Under the pieces are notes generated by a model. The model worked only from the letters and a program-made list of their open reading frames with translations. It ran no database searches and was not told the origin of the DNA. The position numbers and the translations under genes are program-made. A stretch of 64,000 nucleotides of DNA from a virus (taxonomy: Duplodnaviria; Heunggongvirae; Uroviricota; Caudoviricetes): IMG/VR virus record IMGVR_UViG_3300012667_000768. One strand, given 5' to 3'. Shown piece by piece: positions 6,554 to 39,119 of the stretch (position 1 is its first letter; every line of letters begins with the position of its first letter).

Positions 6554-6748
6554 TTAGCTACTGGATGTTGTACTAGCTACAACCATATGTAACCAGAGTA
6601 CTGCTAGCCAATTCCAAAACGTGAGTTGAATGGAAGTACCGAACAGTTGGTTTACAGCTAAAATACTTAGCCATGGTCCTAATACGAGGATTCCTACTAC
6701 AAAAAGTAGGACACCCCCTACACCAAGAGCTGGGAATATGTTTCTCAT
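6554..6748 (-). CDS. small membrane protein (2 TM)
   Basis: ATG start MRNIFPALG..; track ORF starts at an upstream TTG; two hydrophobic helices; -10 box 6 nt upstream of the ATG. Confidence 0.5.
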   Translation of the reverse strand: MRNIFPALGVGGVLLFVVGILVLGPWLSILAVNQLFGTSIQLTFWNWLAVLWLHMVVASTTSSS

Positions 6749-6754
6749 GTTTAT

Positions 6755-6783
6755 TTTATACTCCAAAACGGCATAAAAGTCAA
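6755..6783 (-). promoter_or_regulatory. host-type promoter TTGACT-N17-TATAAA
   Basis: minus strand reads cTTGACTtttatgccgttttggagTATAAAataaacATG; -10 is 6 nt before the ATG. Confidence 0.5.
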
Positions 6784-6792
6784 GTTATTTTT

Positions 6793-7158
6793 CTACGAGG
6801 CTAGGATAAAATCGCCTGTACGGTCTAGAAATTTGTAGTCTACTAGAGTAGGTTTAAACTCTTCGATAGCCGCTAAAATCGTATCAATATTGAACTCAGC
6901 ACACGAATATACATCGAGTCTCAATAGACCAGGCTCATCCTCGTCCCAAACGTGTAGAGCTATATGACTAGTCTCAATAATAGTTACGGCGGTGAGACCT
7001 CTATTACCAGGCATATCATGGTATCTAGCGTAAGGCCCATCGAGAATTTTCATCCCAATGTCTTCTACTAACTTCTTTTTCCATTGTACGATATACTCTG
7101 GATTCTTGGGTGGATCTTTTACTCTGGCATTAATAACCAGTAGGTGATGTACTAGCAT
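6793..7158 (-). CDS. speH: S-adenosylmethionine decarboxylase proenzyme (small SpeH type, pyruvoyl-dependent)
   Basis: 121 aa; IIETSHIALHVWDE matches the ESH autocleavage/pyruvoyl motif (cf. ISESHLTIHTWPE); DVYSCA resembles the DLFTCG block. Confidence 0.7.
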   Translation of the reverse strand: MLVHHLLVINARVKDPPKNPEYIVQWKKKLVEDIGMKILDGPYARYHDMPGNRGLTAVTIIETSHIALHVWDEDEPGLLRLDVYSCAEFNIDTILAAIEEFKPTLVDYKFLDRTGDFILAS

Positions 7159-7161
7159 TTC

Positions 7162-7872
7162 TTATTTTCCTTCGAGCCACTTTTTAAAGTGGGGCCGGTA
7201 TGGACGATATACGTCAACTCCATATTCTTTTAAATGATCCAGATTTCCTAGATCATACGCGTAAGCACCATCGTAATACCCGCCATATTCCTGAATATTT
7301 GGGAAATATGGTGAAGGCTCTTCGATTGGCTCAATAACATAAACCTGATAGTAGTTATACTCCTTATCAGTTACGTTACGTTTGTGTTCTAGCACGATGG
7401 CCATACAATGCCTACGAGCATGCCATACAATCTGGCCTGGCTCGAATTCTTCTCGCGCACAAGGTTCTGGAATAATTCCAGGATTGTGGTAGTCTGCTCC
7501 CACGACTTTTTGTGGAACGCCTACCCTCTCGATTACTTCTTTAACAAAAGAAGTAGAACGAAAGAGACGCTTTGAAATATCTATAATGGAATCTCCATCA
7601 AGATACCCTTCAATTACTGCTTGGATTTCAAAGGAGTTAGCTGGCTTACCCCGATTGGCAGCGCGACGACGCTGTAGCTCAGATACTTCTTCCTTATAGG
7701 TTTCAATGATCTTTGCTAGTCGCGTAGTATTATACGAAATATTAAGTATTTCGCACGCGTCCTTTTTAGAGATAGGCTTTTCAGCTTCAAGAAGCTCAAT
7801 AACCTTCTTGATATTAGCTTCGGTTAGATTCTCATGTTCCTTAGCTTTAACCTTGCCACGACCAGTAGCCAT
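7162..7872 (-). CDS. HTH DNA-binding protein, hypothetical
   Basis: 236 aa; N-terminal KKDACEILNISYNTTRLAKIIE helix-turn-helix-like segment; Shine-Dalgarno GGAGAG; own promoter. Confidence 0.5.
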   Translation of the reverse strand: MATGRGKVKAKEHENLTEANIKKVIELLEAEKPISKKDACEILNISYNTTRLAKIIETYKEEVSELQRRRAANRGKPANSFEIQAVIEGYLDGDSIIDISKRLFRSTSFVKEVIERVGVPQKVVGADYHNPGIIPEPCAREEFEPGQIVWHARRHCMAIVLEHKRNVTDKEYNYYQVYVIEPIEEPSPYFPNIQEYGGYYDGAYAYDLGNLDHLKEYGVDVYRPYRPHFKKWLEGK

Positions 7873-7898
7873 TGCTCTCTCCTTTGTAATAAAATCCG

Positions 7899-7927
7899 AT
7901 TATACTAGCCAAAGCTAGCAAAGTCAA
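7899..7927 (-). promoter_or_regulatory. promoter TTGACT-N17-TATAAT
   Basis: perfect -35 and -10 hexamers, 17-bp spacer, upstream of 7162-7872. Confidence 0.6.
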
Positions 7928-7928
7928 G

Positions 7929-8069
7929 TTAAATTTTGAAAATCCTTAGGATCTCATCGTCCAGATCGTAGTCTAGCATGTCTCCCTCTTCCCAATCAAG
8001 GTTACGAACCATGCTTTCGGGTATAATAATTCTGTATTCATCTAGATCTGAATCGTATTCAAGTTCCAT
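7929..8069 (-). CDS. small acidic hypothetical protein
   Basis: start re-assigned to MELEYDSD.. directly after the thyX stop; the track ORF 7929-8150 overlaps thyX. Confidence 0.4.
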   Translation of the reverse strand: MELEYDSDLDEYRIIIPESMVRNLDWEEGDMLDYDLDDEILRIFKI

Positions 8070-11045: not shown

Positions 11046-11573
11046 CAGATACTTATCCTTATCTGGCGAAGTGAAGTAGGCTGTTTCTTCCTCACGAGTC
11101 AATTTTCTATGTTGGGGAATACTCTTTTTATCCTTCCAACATACATAAGTGGTCCCGTCGAAAGGTATAGTCCAGGGTTCGATACTCATCTTATCTCCTT
11201 ATTGAAATGGCCCGTTCTGTTTCTAGGTGGAACCATACCCAATGTCTTAGTGCTTACGCAGCAAGAGCAAATGCAACGTCGTTATCGTTTGCAGTTATGT
11301 TTTGTGGCACTTTGCCAGTCAATAGTCTCGGCGTTCCTATTACTCGAAAATCGATCCTAGTTCGCCCCCATCATAGATACACTGGTGTGCTACTACGCTA
11401 AAGGATTGACCGTTACCCGATGGGAACTCGAACATTGTCCAACGGCAGTAATCCACTCCTTAGACGATGGCTGCTTCTAGGCCCACGTCCCAATGTATCT
11501 ATGGTGGAGGCGGCGGGTGCTGCCCCCGCGTCTTTCCGCTTTTATTGTCGGCTGTCAGCGACTATAGTCATCA

Positions 11574-11602
11574 GATATAACAAAAGTTACTCTGAAAGTC
11601 AA
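11574..11602 (-). promoter_or_regulatory. promoter TTGACT-N17-TATATC
   Basis: fires into the 480-bp non-coding stretch 11100-11570. Confidence 0.4.
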
Positions 11603-11605
11603 GAA

Positions 11606-12280
11606 TTATTTCTTTATTGCTATGAAATTTGCTTGGTAGTGTCTAGGCGTCATAATATTTAGTCTATTTCTAGCTTCGATTAAGTTTTCACTGAGCAGTA
11701 GATCGTAGTCCTCTGCTAGTAGAAATGACGCGTTCTTGCCCATACTATACGCTTCTATAAGAAGTTTTATATAGCTATACTTTATTCCCTTATGTAAAAG
11801 AGCTATTATTGATATTAATAACCACCCAGGAGCTTTTGTCTGAGTATAAGAGAACATGGCTAAGCACATTTCGCCAATATAAGAGGTATCGTATCCAGTA
11901 AGAGTATGCCATACGTCATGAACATCAGAATATCTTCTAGCAAGCCAGCTATAAGGATGCCTGGCTTCTATCCATTCTTTTTTGCCTTTGCGATTTAATA
12001 CTGGTAAGTAATCTTCTATATTTGGATACTGAAGGTAAGTTTCCTTTCCTACAGAACCCTCTGGCCTAGAAGATAGGTTTCTGAAATAGGTAGATACTTC
12101 TTCCGAATTGTATACTACCTCTCCGCCCTTTTTACTAGATATTAGCTTATTAAGCATACTCTTCAAAGAGTAACGATTAGTGACATATATAAGATATACA
12201 CTAAACTTAGGGTTCTCTGGATTTTTATAAAGCTTTTTACTTATTTTATACGCCGATTTAAGATCTAGTTTTGGCAGCAT
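11606..12280 (-). CDS. hypothetical protein with COQ4-like HDxxH-x11-E metal-binding motif
   Basis: 224 aa; VHDVWHTLTGYDTSYIGE matches the HDxxH-(x)11-E pattern of the COQ4 family. Confidence 0.45.
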   Translation of the reverse strand: MLPKLDLKSAYKISKKLYKNPENPKFSVYLIYVTNRYSLKSMLNKLISSKKGGEVVYNSEEVSTYFRNLSSRPEGSVGKETYLQYPNIEDYLPVLNRKGKKEWIEARHPYSWLARRYSDVHDVWHTLTGYDTSYIGEMCLAMFSYTQTKAPGWLLISIIALLHKGIKYSYIKLLIEAYSMGKNASFLLAEDYDLLLSENLIEARNRLNIMTPRHYQANFIAIKK

Positions 12281-13142: not shown

Positions 13143-13171
13143 TTGACTTTTGGTCTGGACTACACTATATT
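13143..13171 (+). promoter_or_regulatory. promoter TTGACT-N17-TATATT (plus-strand dut/S21/hydrolase operon)
   Basis: the only plus-strand consensus promoter in the 1-29 kb region. Confidence 0.55.
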
Positions 13172-13305
13172 ACATTCATACAGCGCAAGGAATGCCTAAC
13201 GTTTCGCGAACACTAAATTAAATTGTAGAGTGCTCAAATCCGTGAAATTTAAGAGAGGCCTCTTTCTTTCGCTGTATTTTTCGTTTTAATCTAAAGGAAT
13301 TTAAC

Positions 13306-13518
13306 TTGGGTAAGAAAGTAAAGCGTAAGAAGTATAGTTCCAAGGGCGAACGTCCAAACGTATCTAATGCGAATTCGTTCAATCTATGGTCATTACTTGA
13401 TCGCGCACTATTTAAAGCCAAAGCTCGTGCGGCTGGTAAGCGGGTTTGTGAAACTATTCCAAATCCCGACAAGTCCAAGACCAATGCACGATTTATTAGG
13501 GTATGCAAGAATGGATAA
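13306..13518 (+). CDS. small highly basic protein (TTG start)
   Basis: 70 aa, Lys/Arg-rich; AAAGGA Shine-Dalgarno; first gene after plus promoter 13143-13171; preferred over the antisense ORF 13218-13538. Confidence 0.45.
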   Translation: MGKKVKRKKYSSKGERPNVSNANSFNLWSLLDRALFKAKARAAGKRVCETIPNPDKSKTNARFIRVCKNG

Positions 13519-13699
13519 TATAATTGAGTTTCCCGCAAATCGAACAGAAAGTAAGGGTGATCCAGTTATTGAATTCGTTCTTAATCAATTAATCCCTTGG
13601 GCAATGGAACAGGGATTAGATGTGCAGTCACCCCAATTTCGGCTCAATGGAGCAACTATAATGACTTGCCTACAAGGAATGTTATTGAATGACATTTGA
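13511..13699 (+). CDS. hypothetical protein
   Basis: start MDNIIEF overlaps the upstream stop (ATGGATAA); stop overlaps the dut start. Confidence 0.45.
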   Translation: MDNIIEFPANRTESKGDPVIEFVLNQLIPWAMEQGLDVQSPQFRLNGATIMTCLQGMLLNDI

Positions 13700-14099
13700 A
13701 AAACTACATGAGGATGCTATTATTCCTCATTACCAAACAATCGGATCAGTCGGTCTAGATTTACACAGTATTGAAGCAACCAGCATTGAAGCAGGTAAGC
13801 GCGGTATCGTAGGCACTGGCCTACGTATTCACTTACCACAAGGCATCGAGGGTCAAATTCGTCCTCGGTCTGGCTTGGCAGCAAAGTATGGTATTACCGT
13901 TCTCAATTCCCCTGGCACTATTGATACTGATTATGAAGGAGAACTTAGAGTTATTCTTTATAATACAGGAGATAGTACTTTTAGTATTGAGAAGGGCGAT
14001 AGAATCGCTCAGTTAGTATTGGCTCCCGTGGCTATTGATAGGGATCTTCAGCTAACAAATGTACGTGCAGATCAGGGTTTTGGATCAACAGGTCTATGA
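13689..14099 (+). CDS. dut: dUTP diphosphatase
   Basis: 136 aa; dUTPase motifs RPRSGLAAKYG, GTIDTDYEGEL, GDRIAQLV, QGFGSTG. Confidence 0.85.
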   Translation: MTFEKLHEDAIIPHYQTIGSVGLDLHSIEATSIEAGKRGIVGTGLRIHLPQGIEGQIRPRSGLAAKYGITVLNSPGTIDTDYEGELRVILYNTGDSTFSIEKGDRIAQLVLAPVAIDRDLQLTNVRADQGFGSTGL

Positions 14100-14278
14100 A
14101 AGTCGAAGTAAGAAATAATAATGTTGACCGTGCGATGCAGATTCTAAAGAGAAAGCTCATCGACGAAGGCGTCTTCAGAGAGTTACAAGAACGTCGTTTT
14201 TATGAAAAACCTAGCGATAAAAAGCGTAGGTTGAAGAGAGCGGCAATAGCCAGGGAGAGACGTAGGGAGCGCGGATAA
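14096..14278 (+). CDS. rpsU: ribosomal protein bS21 homolog
   Basis: 60 aa; RRFYEKPSDKKRR matches the conserved bS21 core (E. coli REFYEKPTTERKR); basic C-terminus. Confidence 0.7.
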   Translation: MKVEVRNNNVDRAMQILKRKLIDEGVFRELQERRFYEKPSDKKRRLKRAAIARERRRERG

Positions 14279-14294
14279 ACCGTGAAACTTACGA

Positions 14295-14630
14295 ATGGAT
14301 TGTGTAGCTGATACAGTATATTATGAAGCCAGAGGCGAAGGCACAGAAGGAATGAGGGCAGTAGCCCACGTTATTCTAAACAGAGCCGAAGAAGAGGGCG
14401 TAAGCCCGTGCATTATTGTTAGAAGAAAAGCCCAGTTTGCTACTGGCCCTTCAAGGCCAAAAGACAAGTTGTGGCAAATTGCCAAAAAGATTTCTATAAA
14501 TCCTGGCAAGGACCTAACAAGAGGCGCTACTTATTTTCATAATCGTAGTGTCAGACCATACTGGATAAAACGCCTAGTGGTATCTTTTACCTATGGCGGC
14601 CATATCTTTTATAGAAAGATTATCAAGTAA
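14295..14630 (+). CDS. cell-wall hydrolase, SleB/CwlJ family (Hydrolase_2 domain)
   Basis: 111 aa; VYYEARGEG..AVAHVILNR...QFA pattern of the SleB-type hydrolase domain. Confidence 0.65.
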   Translation: MDCVADTVYYEARGEGTEGMRAVAHVILNRAEEEGVSPCIIVRRKAQFATGPSRPKDKLWQIAKKISINPGKDLTRGATYFHNRSVRPYWIKRLVVSFTYGGHIFYRKIIK

Positions 14631-25278: not shown

Positions 25279-25287
25279 ATATATAAA

Positions 25288-28333: not shown

Positions 28334-28342
28334 ACTTCTTCT

Positions 28343-28885: not shown

Positions 28886-28905
28886 CTCTATCTCCTTACC
28901 CAATC

Positions 28906-28934
28906 ATAATACTTGAATGGACAGTGAAAGTCAA
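28906..28934 (-). promoter_or_regulatory. promoter TTGACT-N17-TATTAT
   Basis: upstream of 28730-28885. Confidence 0.5.
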
Positions 28935-28942
28935 GGCTTTAT

Positions 28943-29497: not shown

Positions 29498-29503
29498 AAG
29501 CCC

Positions 29504-29532
29504 ATTATATATAAAAACTAACCTATTGTCAA
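29504..29532 (-). promoter_or_regulatory. promoter TTGACA-N17-TATAAT, leaderless (ATG 6 nt after -10)
   Basis: minus strand reads cTTGACAataggttagtttttataTATAATgggcttATG. Confidence 0.55.
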
Positions 29533-29564
29533 GCTTTAAAACAGGACTCCCTCGCAAATAAAAC

Positions 29565-29593
29565 TTGACAATGAGTTATTTTTATAGTATATA
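29565..29593 (+). promoter_or_regulatory. promoter TTGACA-N17-TATATA, leaderless (ATG 7 nt after -10)
   Basis: divergent from 29504-29532. Confidence 0.55.
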
Positions 29594-29600
29594 TTTACTC

Positions 29601-30065
29601 ATGGCAAACAATCTTATAAACAGCACCAAGTGGACTAAAGATGAGGAAGAGCGCCTCATGAATATCTATAGTCAGTATGACTCCCTCAAGGACGTCCCTT
29701 TTCACCTACTGAACTTTCCAGGACGCACAGAAAAAGCACTCAAAGCTAAACTCAATCGACTTATTACTAGTCACAATCTTACTTATTCTTGGACTAAGGA
29801 AGAGTCTAGAGAAGTCTTTCGCCAGTATCTACAAGGTGTCGCACTCAAAGACATTGAGACTGAAGCTTCCCTCAATGAACTCGAATCTGAACTCAAACGT
29901 CAGCGCGATAAAGCAGAGCAGATTGTTAGAGCTTACGCCGAAGAGCGTGGACTACAAGTCAACAAATATCTCTCACTAGAGACACTCAATCTCTTTCGCA
30001 ATAATTACAATACTACTAGTGACTTCACTAGAAAAGCACTACATAACAGGATTCAAAATGGCTAA
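29601..30065 (+). CDS. Myb/SANT-like DNA-binding protein
   Basis: WTKDEEERL and WTKEESREVF repeats; ATG 7 nt after the -10 box (leaderless); the track start is a TTG inside the -35. Confidence 0.5.
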   Translation: MANNLINSTKWTKDEEERLMNIYSQYDSLKDVPFHLLNFPGRTEKALKAKLNRLITSHNLTYSWTKEESREVFRQYLQGVALKDIETEASLNELESELKRQRDKAEQIVRAYAEERGLQVNKYLSLETLNLFRNNYNTTSDFTRKALHNRIQNG

Positions 30066-30381
30066 ACGCTGGACCAAAGAAGAAGATGCACTACTGCTCA
30101 AACTAAGACAAGAGGGTCTAAGCTCTAAAGAACTAGCATTCCATATCAAACGCTCCGCAGGAGCTATTCGTATGAGACTCTCAGCACTAGGAGCCGATCT
30201 AGTGTCTAAGCCTTGGTCCTCACAAGATAAGGCACTAGCTTGGCAACTTAAAGAAGCTGGACACTCTACTAAATACATTGCTAGAAAACTGCAACGCACA
30301 ACCGCTGCCATTACTTCCTTTCTTTCAAGAGATGAAGCTAATCATTACAGTAATAGCATACCTCTAGAAAATAGTTCTTGA
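30058..30381 (+). CDS. Myb/SANT-like DNA-binding protein
   Basis: WTKEEDALLLKLRQEG and WSSQDKALAWQLKEAG; start overlaps the upstream stop (ATGGCTAA). Confidence 0.5.
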   Translation: MAKRWTKEEDALLLKLRQEGLSSKELAFHIKRSAGAIRMRLSALGADLVSKPWSSQDKALAWQLKEAGHSTKYIARKLQRTTAAITSFLSRDEANHYSNSIPLENSS

Positions 30382-30406
30382 TTTTTTACAAAGCTTATGA
30401 TATAAT
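30378..30406 (+). promoter_or_regulatory. promoter TTGATT-N17-TATAAT into the 700-bp non-coding region
   Basis: follows the stop of 30058-30381. Confidence 0.4.
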
Positions 30407-30544
30407 CTACTATAAGCTAAAGCGAAGTAGGAAGATCGTTAGATATTCCGCAGCGCTGGGGCGTCGGTTCCCAAGACCGATACGACCCATGCGCTGCAAG
30501 AATTTATCTTAAACTAAAGCAAGCTTTAATCCAAATTACAACGT

Positions 30545-30843
30545 AGTTGTCAGATTAAGTAACCCAATGAAACGAAGTTTCAAGTCAGAGGACGAAGTCC
30601 TCTTGTTTGTTACATACTAAGATAACTGCGTGTTGTTGCCGAGAGTCGAATTGTATCTACCTCAAAAGTAAGAAAAATTGTTGGATTGGAACACAATTCA
30701 TCATGGTTTGTTGAGTTCCTGGTCAAACTTTACATAAATCGTACTAGTCGCGCCCCGCTCCTTCTAGCTCGTACCAGAGTTATGCGACGTAGTAATACTA
30801 GGAACGAAGTTCCTTAGCTCTAGTTAGACAACGTAGTTGTCTT
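30545..30843 (+). repeat. four short triloop hairpins, including the direct repeat ACAACGTAGTTGT
   Basis: ACAAC-GTA-GTTGT (30545), AGAGGAC-GAA-GTCCTCT (30590), AGGAAC-GAA-GTTCCT (30803), GACAAC-GTA-GTTGTC (30829). Confidence 0.45.
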
Positions 30844-31035
30844 TATTGCCTGCTGCTTAATTGCAGTGGGCTATTTTTGTGTCTAAATTTCACTTAATTA
30901 TATTAGATTGTTGTGGTGGCGATTGAATTTGCACTAGATGCGGCGAAGACCGCAAAGTTGTGCTCCGGTACCGCCACAAGCCAAAAAAATCGGCGCAATT
31001 TGCCTTTCGGTGCAGCAAAAACAACAAAAAACCCG

Positions 31036-31075
31036 CTCAGAGTTGCCTCCAAGCGGGTTTTTCTCTATTTATCTA
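31036..31075. terminator. bidirectional intrinsic terminator
   Basis: ACCCGCT..AGCGGGT with T-runs on both strands. Confidence 0.6.
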
Positions 31076-31087
31076 AGATTAACTCGA

Positions 31088-31339
31088 TTAATCCACGTTT
31101 TCGTCAGAAAAGATCTCAAATGCGACAAAAAGGTCACTTCCGAGCGTCGCTTCACCGATTACTAGCTCACTCTCGTCAGACTCGACGAAAACAATATCCC
31201 AAGAGCCAAGCAGACCATCTTCGTGGTAAGGCACCAGTTCGATAGACTCAACGTCATAGTCTAGAAAGACTTCGGGAATGGCTTTCACCATTTCTAGAAT
31301 TACTACTTCAATATCTTCACGAATAGAAATATTACGCAT
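31088..31339 (-). CDS. acidic hypothetical protein
   Basis: start re-assigned to MRNISIRE with Shine-Dalgarno AGAGGAGG; the track start lies upstream. Confidence 0.45.
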   Translation of the reverse strand: MRNISIREDIEVVILEMVKAIPEVFLDYDVESIELVPYHEDGLLGSWDIVFVESDESELVIGEATLGSDLFVAFEIFSDENVD

Positions 31340-31370
31340 AGAACCTCCTCTTTTTGCTTGTTGAATTGTT

Positions 31371-31399
31371 ACTATACTGCGAATGAGCTCCGAAGTCAA
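31371..31399 (-). promoter_or_regulatory. promoter TTGACT-N17-TATAGT
   Basis: upstream of 31088-31339. Confidence 0.5.
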
Positions 31400-31455
31400 C
31401 ACAAAATTTGGGGAGACTTTGGCACGAAGATGCCCAGGTTTGGTAAAATTTGTAC

Positions 31456-31491
31456 TTGACATTGAGTTGAAACTGTACTAAAATCGGCGCC
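31456..31491 (+). promoter_or_regulatory. class A module: TTGACA-N17-TAAAAT followed directly by CGGCGCC
   Basis: transcript would end at terminator 31505-31548 after about 60 nt. Confidence 0.55.
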
Positions 31492-31504
31492 TTTGGCTTG
31501 GGCG

Positions 31505-31548
31505 CAAAAAAGCCCGCTGCAGATGGGCTGCAGCAGGCTATTTTCGTA
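31505..31548. terminator. bidirectional intrinsic terminator
   Basis: GCCCGCTGCAG-atgg-GCTGCAGCAGGC with flanking A6 and T4. Confidence 0.6.
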
Positions 31549-31694
31549 CTAAGCCGATCCGTGTGGAGACTCTGTTACAAGGGACTAAGCGTCCGCGGGT
31601 GAATAACAGGTACTCGGCGGGAGCCGGTCGTGTACTGATTGCTTCCGGAAGGGGGTGTGGAAGTTATCTACTGCCTCGCCCCTTCCTTTATTGC

Positions 31695-32099
31695 TTATGC
31701 ACTCAACTTAGAGCGGATTGCAATAAGCGACTGCTTCGAAGCCTTTTCGAGGCCTTCGAGGTTCTTGCCAACGATCTGGGCAATGTCAGCAACAATTGCT
31801 TCCTTGCTTTCGATCTTGCCACCAGTCTTGGAAACCTTTTCCTTCGACTTGTAGATGCCCATACGGACAGCCTTAGCGCGGATAGAACGCACGTCCTTAC
31901 CGAACTTAGCGGCGAACTCGATAGCAGCGTCATTGTCGATAACGCCTGCAGCAAGCATTTCGGCTTCCTGTGCTTCCGAGTAGTTCTTTGTTACTTCCTT
32001 AGTCATATCAACGTTCCCTTCCGTGTCTTGATGATTAGTTATACCAATGTCAGAGGAAGAAGTCAAGAACAATTTTCTCAATGCTGAAATAATTTTCAT
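31695..32099 (-). CDS. paralogous small-protein family member
   Basis: EFAAKFGKDVRSIRAKAVRMGIY; start MKIISAL with Shine-Dalgarno GGAAGGGAGAAGGAA. Confidence 0.55.
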   Translation of the reverse strand: MKIISALRKLFLTSSSDIGITNHQDTEGNVDMTKEVTKNYSEAQEAEMLAAGVIDNDAAIEFAAKFGKDVRSIRAKAVRMGIYKSKEKVSKTGGKIESKEAIVADIAQIVGKNLEGLEKASKQSLIAIRSKLSA

Positions 32100-32123
32100 T
32101 TCCTTCTCCCTTCCGACCCATTC

Positions 32124-32152
32124 TTTATAGCGGAATGGGCAGGAGAGATCAA
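32124..32152 (-). promoter_or_regulatory. promoter TTGATC-N17-TATAAA
   Basis: proximal promoter for 31695-32099. Confidence 0.4.
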
Positions 32153-32195
32153 GTGCAATTTTTGCATGTGGCCGGAGCAGTTGCAAAAAAAGCAC

Positions 32196-32224
32196 TTGAC
32201 ACGGCGTTGATTTCTCACTATACT
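32196..32224 (+). promoter_or_regulatory. promoter TTGACA-N17-TATACT, followed by TTGGCGCA
   Basis: first of two tandem plus-strand promoters. Confidence 0.5.
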
Positions 32225-32287
32225 TTTGGCGCAACGCGCTTTAACCAAATGGGTTAAAAATTTTTTCAAATTTAACCAAAAAATCGC

Positions 32288-32316
32288 TTGACACGAGGTC
32301 GTTTTCGCACTATAAT
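32288..32316 (+). promoter_or_regulatory. promoter TTGACA-N17-TATAAT, followed by TGGCGCA
   Basis: upstream of the palindromes at 32373-32436. Confidence 0.55.
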
Positions 32317-32372
32317 TGGCGCACGTAAGTTTTGTACTTGTAACTTTTGCACTCTGGCGCGGTAGCGCTGAT

Positions 32373-32436
32373 ATGATATATCATAACGATATGATATATC
32401 ATATCATTGGCTTATGTGATGATATAACATATCATC
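32373..32436. repeat. three perfect palindromes: ATGATATATCAT twice, and GATGATAT-aac-ATATCATC
   Basis: 32373-32384 and 32391-32402 are identical 12-bp self-complementary sites; 32418-32436 is an 8-bp inverted repeat with a 3-nt spacer sharing the ATGATAT half-site. Confidence 0.7.
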
Positions 32437-32526
32437 CAAATCTGCCTCGGCCAGCCCTCCCTCCCACCCTTATAGGGTAGCAATAAAATTTTACCCTGTC
32501 AAGCGCAAATAAAAATAAATTTTCTC

Positions 32527-32562
32527 TTGACAAACGTGTAGAAACCTGCTAAAATCGGCGCC
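32527..32562 (+). promoter_or_regulatory. class A module: TTGACA-N17-TAAAAT-CGGCGCC
   Basis: GGCGCC-N11-GGCGCC lies between this -10 and the -10 of the facing promoter. Confidence 0.55.
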
Positions 32563-32588
32563 TCCCCGATTTCGGCGCCAGCAGCCCT

Positions 32589-32617
32589 ATTATAGCAGGG
32601 TTCGGCTGGCGTGTCAA
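32589..32617 (-). promoter_or_regulatory. facing promoter TTGACA-N17-TATAAT
   Basis: convergent with 32527-32562; the two -10 boxes are about 33 bp apart. Confidence 0.5.
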
Positions 32618-32640
32618 GCGAAAAAATCGCAAAAACAAAA

Positions 32641-32686
32641 AAAAAATCCGCCCAGTTTTACTTGGGCGGACTCTCGTTTTACTTTG
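32641..32686. terminator. bidirectional intrinsic terminator
   Basis: TCCGCCCA-gttttact-TGGGCGGA; T10 on the minus side. Confidence 0.65.
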
Positions 32687-32689
32687 CCT

Positions 32690-33415
32690 TTACTTAACCT
32701 TGAAATGGTCTCGGACAGCAAAAGCGCGGTAATTGTATGGTGGCGGCGACATATATTCTTTTGGTGAAGTATTCTTAACAAGAGCAGTAAGAATAGGAAC
32801 CTCATAAAATTTGGCATCTTCTAAAGCAGTGTGCGGCTCGTCTGCTAGTCCAATGCCTAGCAAGTATTTCGCCATAACGTCCGCATTAGTTTTAATTCCC
32901 ATGTGGCCCGTTTTATTTGTGCGATTTCCGAAAAAGTGATTCTCTAGTGCAAATTGCTTGAAAGCCTTAGTATTTCCCCATTTGGCAACACTAGCGTGCC
33001 ATAGGCAAAAAGAATCGGGAAACAATTCATTTGCGATAATGCCCGAATTGTCCATGACATTTGCGTCAAAAGCCAAGTTATAGGCGGTCAATGTCGGGTT
33101 ATACTTTGCCTTTACTTTAGACAAAAAACGATTGACAGCGCCAACGCTTGCCAGAACGCGCCTGCCATCCTGCAACATTTGTTCATAGGCAGCGTAACGC
33201 TTAGGCAATGAAGCGGCAGAAAAAATGTCGTTTTTATCGCCGTAAACGTGAAACAGCGGATGCGTTTCGCGGTCGCTGAAAAAATCGCCAATAAGGATTC
33301 CAGCCTCGTGGTGGATATTGCCCTTGCGGTCGGACACAACGATTCCAATGTCGGCAACCTTGCCATCTTGTGTTGTTTCAGTGTCAATCGTGACAAAGTA
33401 TTTCTTAGCAGCCAT
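32690..33415 (-). CDS. DEDDh 3'-5' exonuclease (DnaQ-like)
   Basis: Exo I FVTIDTETT, Exo II YNLAFDANV, Exo III HTALEDA; start MAAKKYF with Shine-Dalgarno AAGGAAAAA. Confidence 0.7.
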   Translation of the reverse strand: MAAKKYFVTIDTETTQDGKVADIGIVVSDRKGNIHHEAGILIGDFFSDRETHPLFHVYGDKNDIFSAASLPKRYAAYEQMLQDGRRVLASVGAVNRFLSKVKAKYNPTLTAYNLAFDANVMDNSGIIANELFPDSFCLWHASVAKWGNTKAFKQFALENHFFGNRTNKTGHMGIKTNADVMAKYLLGIGLADEPHTALEDAKFYEVPILTALVKNTSPKEYMSPPPYNYRAFAVRDHFKVK

Positions 33416-33532
33416 TTTCGGTTTTTCCTTTTTCCGTTTCCGATGATTCGTTCTACCAGATTGCACGATTGATGCAAGAAAAATCGACATAAAAAATGCG
33501 AAACCTGTGGATAACTTTTTTCATTTTTCTTC

Positions 33533-33591
33533 ATTTTCCCTATTGACAGCACCCGCCCGCGCATGGTATAATTAGAGTAGCGTTTAAAAAT
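33533..33591 (+). promoter_or_regulatory. class B module: TTGACA-N18-TATAAT, then GTAGCG..AAATTTTCGGCGCC
   Basis: antisense to the minus-strand genes at 33646-34322. Confidence 0.5.
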
Positions 33592-33645
33592 TTTCGGCGC
33601 CTTTGGCGTGTTACCTGAGTAACACACCTCCGGCCTATTCATCCG

Positions 33646-33805
33646 CTAAGGTGATTTCCAGCGGCTCGCCGCTATATAGTTTATTCAATAGCCGCATGAA
33701 TCCAAACAATTCATCGAATTGTGTTTCCGATAAATCGCAATGGCAGACTATTTCGTCTATTTCGCCATAAAGCAAATTTATTGTTTCTTTTGACATTTGC
33801 ATTGC
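33646..33805 (-). CDS. small hypothetical protein (about 53 aa)
   Basis: not in the track; Shine-Dalgarno AAGGGGAAT; follows 33814-34005. Confidence 0.3.
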
Positions 33806-33813
33806 GATTCCCC

Positions 33814-34005
33814 TTAAATGACAGTCATTTCTTGTATAGAAACAAGGTGTTGTTCCTGTAGTGACTCAAAATTTAATTCCTCTTTATCATCTTCGCTTGC
33901 GTCGACGATAAAGTCCAAAGTATTAAACCAGTCTATTGCATTTTGTCGTGAAGTAAAGATAATGTTATCTTGCCCATAATCCCATTCTAGCCAAAGTCTA
34001 AACAT
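33814..34005 (-). CDS. hypothetical protein
   Basis: 63-aa ORF. Confidence 0.45.
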   Translation of the reverse strand: MFRLWLEWDYGQDNIIFTSRQNAIDWFNTLDFIVDASEDDKEELNFESLQEQHLVSIQEMTVI

Positions 34006-34016
34006 AGTAATTCCCC

Positions 34017-34322
34017 TTAGTATTGTGGATAAACAATTAGAGCCAAAAGAATAGTATTTACGAAAAAACCGAATCCGTTGGATACCATATACAAAACATC
34101 TTTATTCTTGTAAGCGCGGACAAAGTAAAGCGCCAAGCCAGCCCAAACTAGCAGAACCATTGAAAGCGGCGGCAGCTTGTCGCTATAACCTAGCAGAACC
34201 GAAATTGTGGTTGGCAATGTTGCGGATTGCACAAGAATCATTCCAGCCCAGCCGGACAATTCAGCCAATGGCATTGCTTTAATTTTCTTAATCATTTTCT
34301 TGTTTCCTTGCTTCGTTTCCAT
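34017..34322 (-). CDS. membrane protein
   Basis: several hydrophobic helices; Shine-Dalgarno AAGGGGAC. Confidence 0.5.
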   Translation of the reverse strand: METKQGNKKMIKKIKAMPLAELSGWAGMILVQSATLPTTISVLLGYSDKLPPLSMVLLVWAGLALYFVRAYKNKDVLYMVSNGFGFFVNTILLALIVYPQY

Positions 34323-34413
34323 GTCCCCTTATCGGCTATTTTTTGCCCTATTGCAAGAAGTTTATTTATGGAAAAAACCGATTAATAAAATTTGTTTAAT
34401 CGAATTTTTTCGC

Positions 34414-34449
34414 TTGACAGGCTAAAATAAATCTGCTAAAATCGGCGCC
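34414..34449 (+). promoter_or_regulatory. class A module: TTGACA-N17-TAAAAT-CGGCGCC
   Basis: GGCGCC-N16-GGCGCC lies between the facing -10 boxes. Confidence 0.55.
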
Positions 34450-34480
34450 TCTGGCCTCAATTTTCGGCGCCCATCGCCCC

Positions 34481-34510
34481 ATTATAACATGGCGGCGTGG
34501 GCCTTGTCAA
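34481..34510 (-). promoter_or_regulatory. facing promoter TTGACA-N18-TATAAT
   Basis: likely promoter of the 34017-34322 operon. Confidence 0.5.
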
Positions 34511-34529
34511 TAGGAAAAATGCACAAAAA

Positions 34530-34572
34530 ACAAAAAAAAAGCGGGGAACAAGTCCCCGCTTCGTTTCTATCT
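34530..34572. terminator. bidirectional intrinsic terminator
   Basis: GCGGGGA-acaag-TCCCCGC; T9 on the minus side. Confidence 0.65.
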
Positions 34573-34580
34573 TAAAGCCT

Positions 34581-34895
34581 TTAGGCTGCGAGCTTTTCCC
34601 GCAGAACCTGCAAAACCAGCTTGGGAGCCTTTTCGAGACCGTCAAGATTCTTGCCAACAATCGAAGCAATATCTTCTACAATCTTTTCCTTAGATTCGAT
34701 TTTACCGCCAGTCTTGCTGACCTTTTCAGCGGCTTTGTAAATGCCAAGGCGAACCGCCTTAGCGCGAATCGAGCGGACATCTTTACCGAATTTCGCAGCA
34801 AAGTCGAGAGCCTTAGCATTGTCAATAATGCCAGCGGCAAGCAATTCAGCTTCTTGCGATTCAGTGTAGTTTTTAGGTGTTTCAGTCTTAGCCAT
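34581..34895 (-). CDS. paralogous small-protein family member
   Basis: about 75% identical to the 31695-32099 product (DFAAKFGKDVRSIRAKAVRLGIY). Confidence 0.55.
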   Translation of the reverse strand: MAKTETPKNYTESQEAELLAAGIIDNAKALDFAAKFGKDVRSIRAKAVRLGIYKAAEKVSKTGGKIESKEKIVEDIASIVGKNLDGLEKAPKLVLQVLREKLAA

Positions 34896-35038
34896 GATAG
34901 TATTTCCTTTGTTATCGCGAGAGGCCCATCCCCTCTTGATGTCCCCTTATACCGCCGCTTTAGTAATCGTGCAAGAAAAAAATTCACGAAAAGCGAAAAA
35001 TGCGACGAACCGTTCATCGCATTTTTTCATTTAAGGGA

Positions 35039-35096
35039 TTGACAGGCCCCAGCCGCACGTGCTATAATGGTAGTAGCGACCCAAATTTTCGGCGCC
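35039..35096 (+). promoter_or_regulatory. class B module: TTGACA-N18-TATAAT, then GTAGCG..AAATTTTCGGCGCC
   Basis: transcript would end at terminator 35145-35175. Confidence 0.5.
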
Positions 35097-35114
35097 TTTT
35101 GGGCGCATCAGTCC

Positions 35115-35143
35115 ATTTTAACATATCCTGAATTTTGTGTCAA
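35115..35143 (-). promoter_or_regulatory. facing promoter TTGACA-N17-TAAAAT
   Basis: convergent with 35039-35096; leads toward 34581-34895. Confidence 0.5.
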
Positions 35144-35144
35144 A

Positions 35145-35175
35145 TAAAAAAAGAGGCTTTCGCCTCTTTTCTTTA
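35145..35175. terminator. bidirectional intrinsic terminator
   Basis: AGAGGC-tttc-GCCTCT with A7 before and T-run after. Confidence 0.6.
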
Positions 35176-35646
35176 GGCCGCAAGCCTTTCGTTTATCTTG
35201 GTTGCGTCATAGCATTTTATGCCGATTGAAACCATTGCATCAATAACCTTTAGGTTATCGTCAAACATGATTGCCTTAGCATCGGCAGCGCAATTGAAAC
35301 CTTCACCAATGAAATAGGTTTCAAGCAAACGAATCTTAAGGCTTGCATCGGATTCCATATTGCCCATTTCACGATGCAGCAAAGCGTCATAGGGAAGGCG
35401 ATTAACAGCAAGAAAAATCTTATCGGCTGGCTGGACTGCCCGCGCTGTGCAAACAATAACCTTATGCCCGATTGAAACCATAGCGCGCATTGACTCGGCT
35501 AAAGGCAAAAGCGAATCGGACATAATCTTTTCTGCGGTATTGTTAGCGAACCAATGGTCAAGGTCAAGCGAGCCATCGGCTTTAGTCGCTTGGCGATGCG
35601 TCGAATCAATCACAGTGCCATCTAGGTCAAAAATAATGTAAGCCAT
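35173..35646 (-). CDS. HAD-superfamily hydrolase/phosphatase
   Basis: motif I FDLDGTVIDS, motif II VCTAR, motif IV MFDDN. Confidence 0.7.
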   Translation of the reverse strand: MAYIIFDLDGTVIDSTHRQATKADGSLDLDHWFANNTAEKIMSDSLLPLAESMRAMVSIGHKVIVCTARAVQPADKIFLAVNRLPYDALLHREMGNMESDASLKIRLLETYFIGEGFNCAADAKAIMFDDNLKVIDAMVSIGIKCYDATKINERLAA

Positions 35647-35738
35647 TTGTTATTCCCTTTCGTCTTGATAAACAATCCTTAGCCGATATTGCGCCCTAGT
35701 GTCAACGAAAAAAATCGCAAAAATAAAAAATAAATGCT

Positions 35739-35796
35739 ATTGACAGGCCCTAGTCATACGTGATATATTTAAGGTAGCGTGCAAAATTTTTGGCGC
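35739..35796 (+). promoter_or_regulatory. class B module: TTGACA-N18-TATATT, then GTAGCG..AAATTTTTGGCGCC
   Basis: antisense to 35809-36009. Confidence 0.5.
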
Positions 35797-35808
35797 CAAT
35801 TGGCGGCC

Positions 35809-36009
35809 TTAATAGACCGCCAATCCAAAGGCTTCTAAGCCTTCCTCCCCATATTCGTTTTCGATTGCGGTAATGACCGCTTCCGTTGGCGAGTCGCCCG
35901 ATTCAAACATATTCCAATAGTCTTGGTCGGGCCACGTATCGCGGTCTAGGCCAGTGATACGTTGAAAGGCTTTGTCGACAGCGATAAGCCAAGATTCGAA
36001 ATTAATCAT
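35809..36009 (-). CDS. hypothetical protein
   Basis: 66-aa ORF. Confidence 0.45.
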   Translation of the reverse strand: MINFESWLIAVDKAFQRITGLDRDTWPDQDYWNMFESGDSPTEAVITAIENEYGEEGLEAFGLAVY

Positions 36010-36021
36010 ATTCGTTTCCCC

Positions 36022-36204
36022 TTATGGTAGATTCTGAAACATAGTAGCGCCAAGCCACATTGTAACCATGAAAGCAATTGAGGCAACAGTAAAAAACCAA
36101 ACCATCTTACGTTCTTCGCGCATTGCAACCATGCCCCACAGACACGTGAACACGCCAGCGATAGAGGCAAAGTAAATGATAAGAGCAACAACATATTCAA
36201 CCAT
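36022..36204 (-). CDS. small membrane protein
   Basis: two hydrophobic helices; minus promoter 36234-36262 upstream. Confidence 0.45.
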   Translation of the reverse strand: MVEYVVALIIYFASIAGVFTCLWGMVAMREERKMVWFFTVASIAFMVTMWLGATMFQNLP

Positions 36205-36233
36205 AGTCTTATTCCTTTTCGTCTTGATGCACC

Positions 36234-36262
36234 CTTATACCAATGGGCAATCACCTTGTCAA
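36234..36262 (-). promoter_or_regulatory. promoter TTGACA-N17-TATAAG
   Basis: upstream of 36022-36204. Confidence 0.45.
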
Positions 36263-36296
36263 CAATAAAAAATAAAATAAAAATAAAAATTTGCTA

Positions 36297-36325
36297 TTGA
36301 CATTGCGTTGGAGCTATGCTATAGG
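36297..36325 (+). promoter_or_regulatory. TTGACA-N17-TATAGG with an upstream A-tract
   Basis: weak -10; A-tract AATAAAA x4 upstream. Confidence 0.3.
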
Positions 36326-36410
36326 GAGGGCGGTTATTAGACTAGTTGGTTCCACGCACGCTGGGACTACTCCGCACGTACTACTTTGGGTAAAAACGCC
36401 CAACAAGGTG

Positions 36411-36839
36411 CTATTTAGAGTCGGCAGTAGCCTTGTTCACCAAGTCTTTATACCCGCGCCATGAAGGGTGAATATGGTCCGGTTGCAAATAAGTCGTCGA
36501 AATTATTCGGTCGCCATAGCTCACCGCCACGCTTCGAACCATCGCGTTCACGCCCAACTTACAAAATCTCACATTGCAAGGAGGCATAATCCAAACTACT
36601 CTAGACCCCCGAGGAATGCGCTTTCTAATCTTTAGCAACTCCACATCGGTCTTCACACCCACGTGATCATTCGTCCCCAAACTTATGATAATCGTTTTAG
36701 CCGAGACAGGATTCATTCCCCAGCGCTGATTCCACTGCCAAGAGTTTATTCCGCCCTTAGCATATGCCACACACTCCTGAGGTGCAAACATCTTTGTACC
36801 AACAGCGATCGAGTCGCCCATAATCAAACATTCTAGCAT
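36411..36839 (-). CDS. SGNH/GDSL hydrolase
   Basis: block I IMGDSIAVG, block III GTND, block V DHIHP. Confidence 0.65.
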   Translation of the reverse strand: MLECLIMGDSIAVGTKMFAPQECVAYAKGGINSWQWNQRWGMNPVSAKTIIISLGTNDHVGVKTDVELLKIRKRIPRGSRVVWIMPPCNVRFCKLGVNAMVRSVAVSYGDRIISTTYLQPDHIHPSWRGYKDLVNKATADSK

Positions 36840-37111
36840 TCGTCTACCTCATCCCCAAATTCAAAAGCTACCTTAGACACCTTCACATTTAACCAAGGCT
36901 TCGCCGTTTTTAGCCATACTACCTTTTTCGCGTCAATCTTCCTGCGAAGTTGCCGAAGCTCGCTCTCCGAAGTCAAATTGTCTAAGTTTATCAAAACCGT
37001 TCCGCCTTTAATACCTCGTCCACCAGATCCCCGACTTACTTCACAGTGTACTAGTGACACCATTTGTGTTCCCGAGGAGATCAAGCCATCCATCATTAAA
37101 CATTCTATCAT
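36833..37111 (-). CDS. degenerate N-terminal paralog of the SGNH hydrolase
   Basis: MIECLMMDGLISSGT aligns with MLECLIMGDSIAVGT, but the catalytic Ser is replaced. Confidence 0.4.
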   Translation of the reverse strand: MIECLMMDGLISSGTQMVSLVHCEVSRGSGGRGIKGGTVLINLDNLTSESELRQLRRKIDAKKVVWLKTAKPWLNVKVSKVAFEFGDEVDEC

Positions 37112-37420
37112 AAAATCTCCATTTAAAAAATCGCGTTGCGAAACCGAATTAGTCCCTCAAAAGCCAGCTTGCAATCACTCGAACGCATTCGTTGCCACGA
37201 TAGAAGAAGCTGTATCCATTTCTATCCTCCCTACGAAGACCTTCTAGGCTCCAGCCCTCACGATTACCCGCTAGTACGTATTTCACCGATTAACTCCTGA
37301 TAAGCTGCCTCTAGTTCGTACTCGTCATAGACTTCTTCTAGTGAGCATCCCATACGCTGCATCCAGTTTCCTGACTCAAAGCGATAATACTCCTCACCTT
37401 TCCACTCGATAATCTCGAAC

Positions 37421-37687
37421 TTAGCTTCGTGAAGTTTTTGCATATTGTTGTCCTAGCTTGAAGAGACCGATTGCTGGAAGGCTAATTGGCCAGAGAAGTG
37501 CAAAGGGTATTGAAAGTACTATGAACTTAAAAATCTTGTCACCGTCTAGCTCCAGATCTTCCTTTTTCTTCTTACGATATGTAATATCGTATTCGCTTGG
37601 TGGGCTATAAAATAGTTCCCGTTGCTTTGCGCCAGCGTAGGTTACTCTCGCCGCTAGTATTACTAGAAGTCCAGTTGTATAAATCAT
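37421..37687 (-). CDS. membrane protein
   Basis: 88 aa, two TM helices. Confidence 0.45.
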   Translation of the reverse strand: MIYTTGLLVILAARVTYAGAKQRELFYSPPSEYDITYRKKKKEDLELDGDKIFKFIVLSIPFALLWPISLPAIGLFKLGQQYAKTSRS

Positions 37688-37890
37688 TTAATAAAACCTT
37701 TCAATAGTGTACGAAATTCACGTTCGTGTCTGTAAAAGAGGTCGTCGACCTCACGCTTCTGTTCTGGCGTGAGAACTTGCTCAATCTGTACTGTTTGTGA
37801 GATACAGTCTACGATTCCATTATCAATTTGCCCATGCATAATATACTTTTCGTGATTAATGCAGGCAATGTCTAGCCATTCATTTTCCAA
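37684..37890 (-). CDS. hypothetical protein (TTG start)
   Basis: 68-aa ORF. Confidence 0.4.
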   Translation of the reverse strand: MENEWLDIACINHEKYIMHGQIDNGIVDCISQTVQIEQVLTPEQKREVDDLFYRHEREFRTLLKGFIK

Positions 37891-38036
37891 TTATATACTC
37901 CTCTATATGTTTCCAGAATTGCTTAGCATCTTCTGATATGTTTTCTGATAGTCCTGTTACTTCGCCCGTCTCACAGTGAACTTTTACATTACCGAAGGTT
38001 ATGTAAATGGGCTTATTAATAGCTGGTACGATACTA

Positions 38037-38381
38037 TTATTCATAAAACATTCTCTTTTCTATTTCTTCTAGTGCTAGTTTAGCTTCTTCGAAGTTACGA
38101 TCGTAGAGATTGTACTGCGCCTTGGTTAGAAGATGACGAAACTCTCCGAAGATTAACTCGGTGACTGATCGCTTAATGATTCGCATAGCCTGTTCGCGTT
38201 GGTCTGGTACAGAGTCATCGACCTTTACCGTGTGTCCTAGCTTAACGCCGACGAAGTACTCTGTAAGAAATGCTTGGTCGACTGGCTGATGCATTTCCAC
38301 TGTCGTGAATAATAGTGGGGATGTTTGGGCGTACCTGGTGCCAGTCATGCTGGCTTCGATCTTTTTAATAATCTCGCTCAT
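38037..38381 (-). CDS. hypothetical protein
   Basis: 114-aa ORF. Confidence 0.5.
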   Translation of the reverse strand: MSEIIKKIEASMTGTRYAQTSPLLFTTVEMHQPVDQAFLTEYFVGVKLGHTVKVDDSVPDQREQAMRIIKRSVTELIFGEFRHLLTKAQYNLYDRNFEEAKLALEEIEKRMFYE

Positions 38382-38577
38382 ACTTTTCCTTTATTGGAAT
38401 TTGCTTCCATAGTTTTCTTGGGTTGCCACAGATCAGACAACGTGGGTTGCCACAATCGAGTGCGTGTTTCTTTTTAAATTTACCTGCTACTACATTAAGA
38501 ATACCTCGGAGTTTAGCAAGCCTAAGCTGCTTAGCTACGAATTTCTTAGTATTAGCGCGTCTCTCTGCTCTTTTCAT
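38365..38577 (-). CDS. small basic protein, possible zinc finger
   Basis: CGNPRCLICGNPR. Confidence 0.45.
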   Translation of the reverse strand: MKRAERRANTKKFVAKQLRLAKLRGILNVVAGKFKKKHALDCGNPRCLICGNPRKLWKQIPIKEKYERDY

Positions 38578-38660
38578 TTCATCACATTACTATAAATGGG
38601 TAGAGAAGTCAAGAAAAATTTATTGAATGGTGAGGAAGCGGTACCTCCTGTAAAAATAGC

Positions 38661-38689
38661 TTGACCCACGATCCCCTTGCTGGTATAAT
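38661..38689 (+). promoter_or_regulatory. promoter TTGACC-N17-TATAAT opening the plus-strand late region, leaderless (ATG 7 nt after -10)
   Basis: marks the strand-switch point. Confidence 0.55.
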
Positions 38690-38696
38690 TCGACTT

Positions 38697-39119
38697 ATGA
38701 CTCAAATTGCACTAAGACCAGAAGACATAGATATCGCAAATGCTTATTTGACCTATGGTTCTGCCAAGGATACGGCGGACCAATTAGGTGTGCCCGAATA
38801 CCAAGTCGTGCAGATTCTAGAGCGTTCGGATGTAAAAGACTATATAACAGGCGTCTATTTAGACAGAGGCTATAGGAATAGAAATAAACTAGGCCAAGTT
38901 CTCGATAAAATGATAGATGCCAAGCTAGAGGAAGCAGAAGAAAGCGGAATCTATACTTCGAAAGATTTGCTAGAGCTTTTACAGTTCGCTCACAAGATGA
39001 GAATGGACGAGCTAAAGAACGAGCAAGCAAATACAGGTCCGACAGTTAACATTGCCAATTTTGGGCAAGGCAACTACGGACAGTTAATGGAACGCCTGCT
39101 TAATAATGAAGGCAAGTAA
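38697..39119 (+). CDS. terminase small subunit-like HTH protein
   Basis: ANAYLTYGSAKDTADQLGVPEYQVVQILERSDVKDYI resembles the N-terminal HTH of P27-type small terminases; ATG 7 nt after the -10 box. Confidence 0.45.
   Translation: MTQIALRPEDIDIANAYLTYGSAKDTADQLGVPEYQVVQILERSDVKDYITGVYLDRGYRNRNKLGQVLDKMIDAKLEEAEESGIYTSKDLLELLQFAHKMRMDELKNEQANTGPTVNIANFGQGNYGQLMERLLNNEGK

Follow-up and report, generated by a model that had tools for sequence, protein, structure and literature searches.

Predicted leaderless mRNAs at back-to-back promoter hubs in an uncultivated phage lineage

The DNA analyzed here, a stretch of 64,000 nt referred to as the window (IMG/VR record IMGVR_UViG_3300012667_000768, Caudoviricetes), is a segment of a freshwater phage genome with a GC content of approximately 41%. 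In addition to the genes terS and terL and a portal gene, it encodes an endolysin, four tRNAs, a permuted transfer-messenger RNA (tmRNA), a GOLLD RNA, a SpeD-like protein and a homologue of ribosomal protein bS21 (S21). Four genes of the window begin with an ATG that lies only 6 or 7 nt behind the -10 box of a sigma-70-type promoter and are candidates for transcription into leaderless mRNAs. They are arranged in pairs at two hubs of back-to-back promoters, with intergenic regions of 103 bp (hub 29497/29601) and 119 bp (hub 38577/38697), respectively. Genes and hubs are designated by the position of the start codon, the labels L001 etc. denote related phage loci used in the comparison, and the term gap refers to the number of nucleotides that separate the -10 box from the ATG. 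The coordinates of the features are listed in Table 1.

Table 1. Positions of genes, promoters and RNAs in the window
Feature	Position	Strand	Remarks
64-aa hydrophobic/membrane protein gene	6554..6748	-	hydrophobic region conserved in relatives
Promoter-like TTGACT-17-TATAAA	6755..6783	-	GGAG at 6761-6764 (minus-strand sense) within the spacer
speD-like (S-adenosylmethionine decarboxylase-like) gene	6793-7158	-	auxiliary gene
Permuted (two-piece) alpha-type tmRNA	11206-11606	-	Rfam, 108 bits; tag peptide ANDNDVAFALAA
Ribosomal protein bS21 homologue	14096-14278	+	Pfam PF01165, 63.4 bits (cutoff 27), residues 2-54 of 60
GOLLD RNA	21056-21545	-	201.7 bits (gathering score 150)
Pentapeptide-repeat protein gene, 184 aa	28943..29497	-	Pfam PF13599/PF00805
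Promoter of pentapeptide-repeat gene	29504..29532	-	TTGACA-17-TATAAT, 12/12 match to sigma-70 consensus
Promoter of Myb-like gene	29565..29593	+	TTGACA-17-TATATA, weak -10
Myb/SANT-like DNA-binding protein gene, 154 aa	29601..30065	+	weak Pfam matches
70-aa basic protein gene (MKRAERR...)	38365..38577	-	gap 6, no Shine-Dalgarno sequence
Promoter of gene divergent from terS	38584..38612	-	TTGACT-17-TAATGT, weak -10 in the window
terS promoter	38661..38689	+	TTGACC-17-TGgTATAAT, extended -10
terS (small terminase subunit)	38697-39119	+	tblastn to T5-like terS
terL	45642-46928		
Portal gene	48046-49227		

At hub 29497/29601, the pentapeptide-repeat gene, which heads a long minus-strand block, reads TTGACA-17-TATAAT-gggctt-ATG, corresponding to a gap of 6 nt without a Shine-Dalgarno (SD) sequence. 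Three homologues of 84% identity (L033, L034 and L040) displayed the arrangement TTGACA-17-TATAAT-ggcgtct-ATG with a gap of 7 nt and an N-terminus longer by 9 residues, and two homologues of 53% identity (L041 and L042) read TTGACA-17-TATGAT-gcagtc-ATG with a gap of 6 nt; in L041, the gene has no in-frame start codon upstream. On the plus strand of the hub, the Myb-like gene reads TTGACA-17-TATATA-tttactc-ATG (gap 7, no SD). Alternative -10 boxes for this gene were dropped, as TATAGT would require a spacer of 12 nt and TATATT one of 19 nt. A Myb-like homologue of 58% identity in L036 is preceded by a 25-nt leader with AAGGAGG, and homologues of 47% identity occur as the second gene in an operon. 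Relatives of both genes were reached via a large protein database, while scans of viral contigs with the Myb-like and pentapeptide proteins as queries yielded no matches. L041 and L042 are mosaics relative to window positions 29470-29640, in that near-identity on the Myb side (promoter and gene start) contrasts with only 53% identity of the adjacent pentapeptide gene. This pattern suggests that recombination may have occurred within the 103-bp hub.

At hub 38577/38697, terS heads the packaging and structural block of the plus strand, encodes 140 aa and reads TTGACC-17-TGgTATAAT-tcgactt-ATG (gap 7, no SD). The promoter is kept in L001-L013, L015 and L023. In the first 14 of these loci (terS identity of 82-88%), cTTGAC-17-TGnTATAAT is followed by 6-7 nt and the ATG; the more distant terS of L023 (46%) reads TTGACA-17-TGaTATAAT-tcaaat-ATG with a gap of 6 nt. 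Eight different gap sequences were observed for terS, namely tcgactt (in the window), ccgaatt, tcacact, tcgtatt, ccatatt, tcgagt, gcaaatt and gcacatt, and the coding sequence after the ATG varies at third positions. In other relatives the gene is arranged differently. In L017 and L018, the promoter is unchanged, but the ATG is preceded by a leader of 22 nt that contains GAGGAG; in L014, L016 and L019-L021, terS has no promoter and is joined to an upstream gene.

In an alternative scheme, the promoters are real, but translation begins at a downstream in-frame codon and the first codons form an untranslated leader. In-frame GTG, TTG and ATG codons do exist, e.g., a TTG at 38748 and a GTG at 38790 in terS. 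However, these downstream codons have no good SD, the first residues of TerS are conserved as protein (MTQIAL...) with third-position changes between ACT, ACA and ACC, CAA and CAG, and ATT and ATC, and the homology to T5-like terS, which in tblastn extends to the end of the window protein, begins as early as residue 5-6. We therefore regard initiation at a downstream codon as very improbable. A start upstream of the ATG is closed off in L009 and L023, where the terS frame is interrupted by a stop codon immediately before the ATG.

The gene divergent from terS, 38577(-), was missing from the list of an earlier note on this DNA and represents a fourth leaderless candidate. It reads TTGACT-17-TAATGT-gatgaa-ATG with an in-frame stop 9 nt upstream, and its orthologues in L005 and L112-L115 read TTGACT-17-TAATAT-aagcatt-ATG. 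With this gene added, both sides of both hubs are predicted to be leaderless. In L116-L119, a 41-aa gene is inserted ahead of the 38577-type gene. Here, the new first gene starts 6 nt after TATATT or TACATT, and the 38577-type gene, now second in the operon, is preceded by an SD (GGGAGGA or GGAGAA). Comparison of the two arrangements thus indicates that the promoter-adjacent gene, whichever it may be, has no SD and a gap of 6-7 nt, and that the same gene appears to gain an SD when moved away from the promoter.

The distribution of gaps was then determined for open reading frames (ORFs) in the window that start with ATG, encode 40 aa or more and follow a promoter with a score of 10/12 or higher. 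Gaps of 6-7 nt occurred in four cases and were otherwise 19-39 nt, with none at 0-5 or 8-18 nt. The longer leaders of 19-39 nt contain clear AAGGAG-type sites. At 29497, 29601, 38577 and 38697, the stretch from the -10 box to the ATG contains no GGAG-like motif; several other genes of the window also lack a clear SD. Two further sites were dropped: 6501(-), reading TATAGT-atactag-ATG, has no -35 box and sits in a hairpin, and at 6156(-) the -10-like hexamer directly abuts the ATG. The scan was also performed on the window together with 107 related loci (388 kb), all of which belong either to the S21-bearing group or to the terS relatives. Among 302 distinct promoter-like sites, an ATG-started ORF occurred at gap 6 in 22 cases and at gap 7 in 17 (39/302), compared to 0-5 at every other gap up to 19 nt. 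The genes at these 39 sites represent 14 protein families. At the same gaps, GTG was found as start codon in no case and TTG in one, and neither GTG and TTG nor the control triplets CTG, ATA, ACG and AAG produced a peak at gap 6-7 in this set. At the 5' end of an mRNA, GUG and UUG function poorly as start codons. A pyrimidine directly precedes the A of the ATG in 32 of the 39 sites, which is the usual preference at transcription starts, and A at position +4 is modestly enriched (25/39 versus 37/83). The T5-like phage phiR2-01 served as a control; over its first 50 kb, none of 46 promoter-like sites had a gap of 6-7 nt.

The region around the hubs is generally rich in such promoters. With sites defined as TTGACA and TATAAT hexamers 16-18 bp apart, 56 sigma-70-type sites were found at 22000-41000 (38.7 +/- 6.1 expected), including six 12/12 matches. 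Between the two hubs, positions 31400-35800 hold a dense array of near-perfect sigma-70 promoters, in which three families of repeats (40-65 nt) can be distinguished. Within the array, three pairs of promoters face each other (32555/32589, 34442/34481 and 35068/35115), with 33-46 nt between the -10 boxes and one or two GGCGCC motifs in this interval, e.g., TAAAATCGGCGCCTCCCCGATTTCGGCGCCAGCAGCCCTATTATA. Strong terminators are located near the array, and few convincing ORFs occur at 32100-32690.

The earlier note had proposed leaderless mRNAs for 29497, 29601, 38697 and, in addition, the 64-aa membrane protein gene starting at 6748. At all four loci, the promoter sequences and gaps of 6-7 nt read as described there. 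The leaderless interpretation gained support for the first three, at which the gap is conserved in relatives, but not for 6748(-), which reads TTGACT-17-TATAAA-ataaac-ATG with a gap of 6 nt and has a GGAG 12 nt upstream of the ATG. In relatives, the gap of this gene is 4 nt (L026 and L027) or 2 nt (L025), and all four sequences retain a GGAG or AAGG at a distance of 8-12 nt upstream of the ATG. The gap is thus not conserved, transcription starting 7 nt past the -10 box would miss the ATG in the relatives, and the leaderless reading is not supported. The gene itself is real, as its hydrophobic region is conserved in relatives, and it starts 44 nt after the speD-like gene on the same strand. Gaps of 2 and 4 nt would place the start within or past the ATG, and the GGAG or AAGG has persisted, so that 6748 is better read as an SD-led gene on a read-through transcript.

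The same explanation could be extended to the hubs: the ATGs would be real, but translated from longer transcripts by SD-less internal or coupled initiation, and the position of the promoters would be incidental. This suits 6748, with its upstream gene and its GGAG or AAGG, and the occurrence of other genes without a clear SD in the window adds to it. At both hubs, however, the upstream neighbours are located on the opposite strand, so that no same-strand transcript enters from nearby. In addition, neither the ATG-only peak at gap 6-7 nor the gain of an SD whenever a gene moves away from its promoter would be expected if the position were incidental. Translation from longer transcripts is thus an unlikely explanation for the hub genes.

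We consider it likely that the genes at 29497(-), 29601(+), 38577(-) and 38697(+), each the first gene at a back-to-back hub, are transcribed as leaderless mRNAs. Host sigma-70 RNA polymerase would bind the near-consensus promoter, TTGAC(A), 17 bp and TATAAT, at times with an upstream TG. Transcription would start 7-8 nt past the -10 box, that is, at the A of the ATG, a start that the preceding pyrimidine would favour. The predicted transcript begins with 5'-AUG and has neither a 5' untranslated region nor an SD; the 5'-terminal AUG would therefore be bound directly by the ribosome and the initiator tRNA, as for lambda cI, via the 70S or the 30S-IF2 pathway. Genes further downstream in the operons and those behind other promoters would use ordinary AAGGAG-type sites with leaders of 19-39 nt. 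The geometry of promoter and ATG, the lack of an SD, the restriction to ATG, and the conservation and switching in relatives are observed directly. The start site, the mode of ribosome binding and good handling of such mRNAs by the host are inferred, the first two from what is established for lambda cI and for leaderless mRNAs in general (PMC10491246).

Several observations weigh against this interpretation. The -10 boxes of two of the four genes are weak, as TATATA at 29601 matches the consensus at 4/6 positions and has no final T, and TAATGT at 38577 is likewise a poor match. At 29601, conservation is uninformative, since the near relatives all share the same promoter sequence. Where the gap is 7 nt, transcription could start one base before the A. 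The count of 39 sites includes kin loci, which are not independent, and thus overstates the number of independent events, so that the 14 families are the safer figure; a few short ORFs among these may be spurious genes. The 5' ends of the leaderless ORFs were not significantly less structured than those of the leadered ORFs (p = 0.07). Finally, the choice of the start site by the host polymerase and the capacity of the host for leaderless translation are assumed.

A third hub, near 13012/13143, heads the block that holds the S21 gene. Both sides are leadered in the window, and in the relatives L044-L055 both sides display leaderless geometry. In L044 (520-715), TTGACT-17-TATATT is followed by 6 nt and a 55-aa Myb-like ORF, a paralogue. 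At 13143-13310 (+) of the window, the same promoter TTGACT-17-TATATT occurs, an ATA replaces the ATG of the Myb-like ORF, and a stop follows after 12 codons. The sequence thus indicates that the 55-aa Myb-like gene was lost in the window, where a leader of about 135 nt would now precede the next gene. Taken together, the comparison across loci indicates that the design is shared by the lineage and has its focus on the genes that come first at divergent promoter hubs; the pattern is wider and stronger than the earlier note had stated.

The type of mechanism is already known from cI of phage lambda, but is used unusually often here. At lambda PRM, we read TAGATT-taacgt-ATG, i.e., a gap of 6 nt without an SD. 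As at the hubs, the promoter region around cI is compact and divergent, and cI codes for a DNA-binding protein, which probably also applies to the gene at 29601. Lambda differs in that a single regulatory gene is concerned, its promoter is weak and activator-dependent, and the partner promoter PR gives rise to SD-led cro. In contrast, the promoters described here are close to the consensus, leaderless genes are predicted on both sides of two hubs, and a small terminase is among the genes. Genome-wide sets of leaderless genes in Lactococcus cremoris, mycobacteria and Caulobacter share the -10-like box just upstream and the strict use of AUG; these are measured transcriptomes of cells, whereas the present set was predicted from the sequences of uncultivated phages. 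In L. cremoris, the measured leader lengths are bimodal, with none between about 4 and 14 nt, and this distribution, with leaders either close to 0 nt or longer than about 15-20 nt, matches the one predicted here (PMC10986495).

The phage has tRNA clusters and many strong sigma-70-type promoters in common with the T5-like phages (Demerecviridae), as well as a genome of about 100 kb. The proteins encoded by terL, the portal gene and terS are 35-49% identical to those of T5-like phages (47-49% for TerL, 42-43% for the portal protein and 35-37% for TerS). However, the cultured T5-like phages differ in that terS is SD-led or coupled, the peak at gap 6-7 is absent (phiR2-01) and similarity at the nucleotide level is lacking; a megablast search of positions 28000-40000 against cultured phages yielded no DNA-level match. 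The kinship with Demerecviridae therefore appears distant, and the phage was not filed as a member of this family. Relatives with a terS identity of 81-88% occur on many IMG/VR contigs. With respect to the host, the packaging genes point to T5-like phages of Gammaproteobacteria, and the tag peptide of the tmRNA together with the Rfam match to the alpha type suggests an alphaproteobacterial origin of the tmRNA gene. A degenerate search for the tag ANDNDVAFALAA in 185,579 species genomes gave no match, and neither did a scan of genomes with an S21 alignment.

Further features of the window were noted outside the hubs. A tRNA at 21398-21473 is embedded in the GOLLD RNA, and three further tRNAs are located at 20630-20932. 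Two large proteins encoded at 70-3225 (-) and 4864-6156 (-) contain the N-terminal major tropism determinant domain (Mtd_N), and a 530-aa protein encoded between them displayed a depolymerase-like match slightly under the Pfam cutoff; these are probably receptor-binding tail proteins. A 465-aa ORF at 41706-43103 (+) has no Pfam match and shares 55-62% identity over its C-terminal approximately 100 residues with hypothetical proteins from several Pelagibacter phages.

The earlier note had further regarded the S21 gene and the leaderless mRNAs as one coherent theme. S21 is indeed encoded by the phage, as the match to PF01165 is clearly above the cutoff (Table 1). The gene overlaps the stop codon of an upstream dUTPase gene and, together with the dUTPase and a cell-wall hydrolase gene, forms a small plus-strand island at 13689-14630 (+) inside a minus-strand block. 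Its identity is further backed by tblastn, and 64 related viral loci carry S21 homologues. The S21-carrying freshwater phages of Bacteroidetes have genomes of 293-331 kb and are unrelated to the phage studied here. As in the window, the S21 homologues of pelagiphage HTVC008M and of freshwater Bacteroidetes phages are short and of aquatic source (PMC6375957, PMC9723584). Earlier work on these phages proposes a general selection of phage transcripts at initiation (PMC6375957, PMC9723584), and the word 'leaderless' does not occur in one of the two papers (PMC9723584).

A functional tie between S21 and the leaderless design is conceivable: once in host ribosomes, the phage protein would shift the balance between leaderless and SD-led mRNAs, for example with leaderless operon-head genes translated first and SD-led genes favoured once S21 accumulates. 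In addition to the S21 gene in the window, the peak at gap 6-7 in loci fetched via S21 homologues of 50-57% identity is in line with such a tie, as are reports that phage bS21 can enter ribosomes (PMC6375957), that bS21 is placed at the anti-SD, and that Escherichia coli ribosomes lacking uS2 and bS21 translate the leaderless mRNA of lambda cI better (PMC10491246). The last result also means that extra S21 would not obviously favour leaderless mRNAs. Moreover, contig 3300023174_000099, the sole long contig checked for co-occurrence, carries S21 (L058) along with a terS that has no adjacent promoter and is coupled to its upstream gene (L019). A simple division into early and late genes does not fit either, because terS, which is presumably late, is among the predicted leaderless genes. 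The theme proposed in the earlier note was thus not supported, and we regard a functional link between S21 and the design as improbable. The most far-reaching version, in which an S21-encoding freshwater lineage keeps its unit-head genes leaderless and the rest SD-led and retunes host ribosomes between the two modes by its own bS21 during infection, appears highly unlikely; if true, it would represent a phage-driven switch in ribosome specificity.

The predicted leaderless hub genes have consequences for the annotation of such phages. As the earlier note had pointed out, the ORF list places the start of two genes at a TTG belonging to the -35 box; the positions are 29565 and 38661. The two hexamers, the spacer and the gap add up to 36 nt (6+17+6+7), so that this TTG is in frame with the ATG. 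The called N-terminus of a pentapeptide homologue differs as well. Gene finders such as GeneMarkS-2 model a class of leaderless genes. Since gene callers mis-start such genes, the annotation of phages in this lineage needs a leaderless model. If the prediction is correct, the host must translate 5'-AUG mRNAs well, as essential genes such as terS would depend on it. The occurrence of the same gene in leaderless or SD-led form in close relatives indicates that phages can evidently swap the two modes freely, and these relatives represent a natural set of constructs for comparing modes of initiation. Many aquatic viruses encode S21, and the present material makes the question of its role testable.

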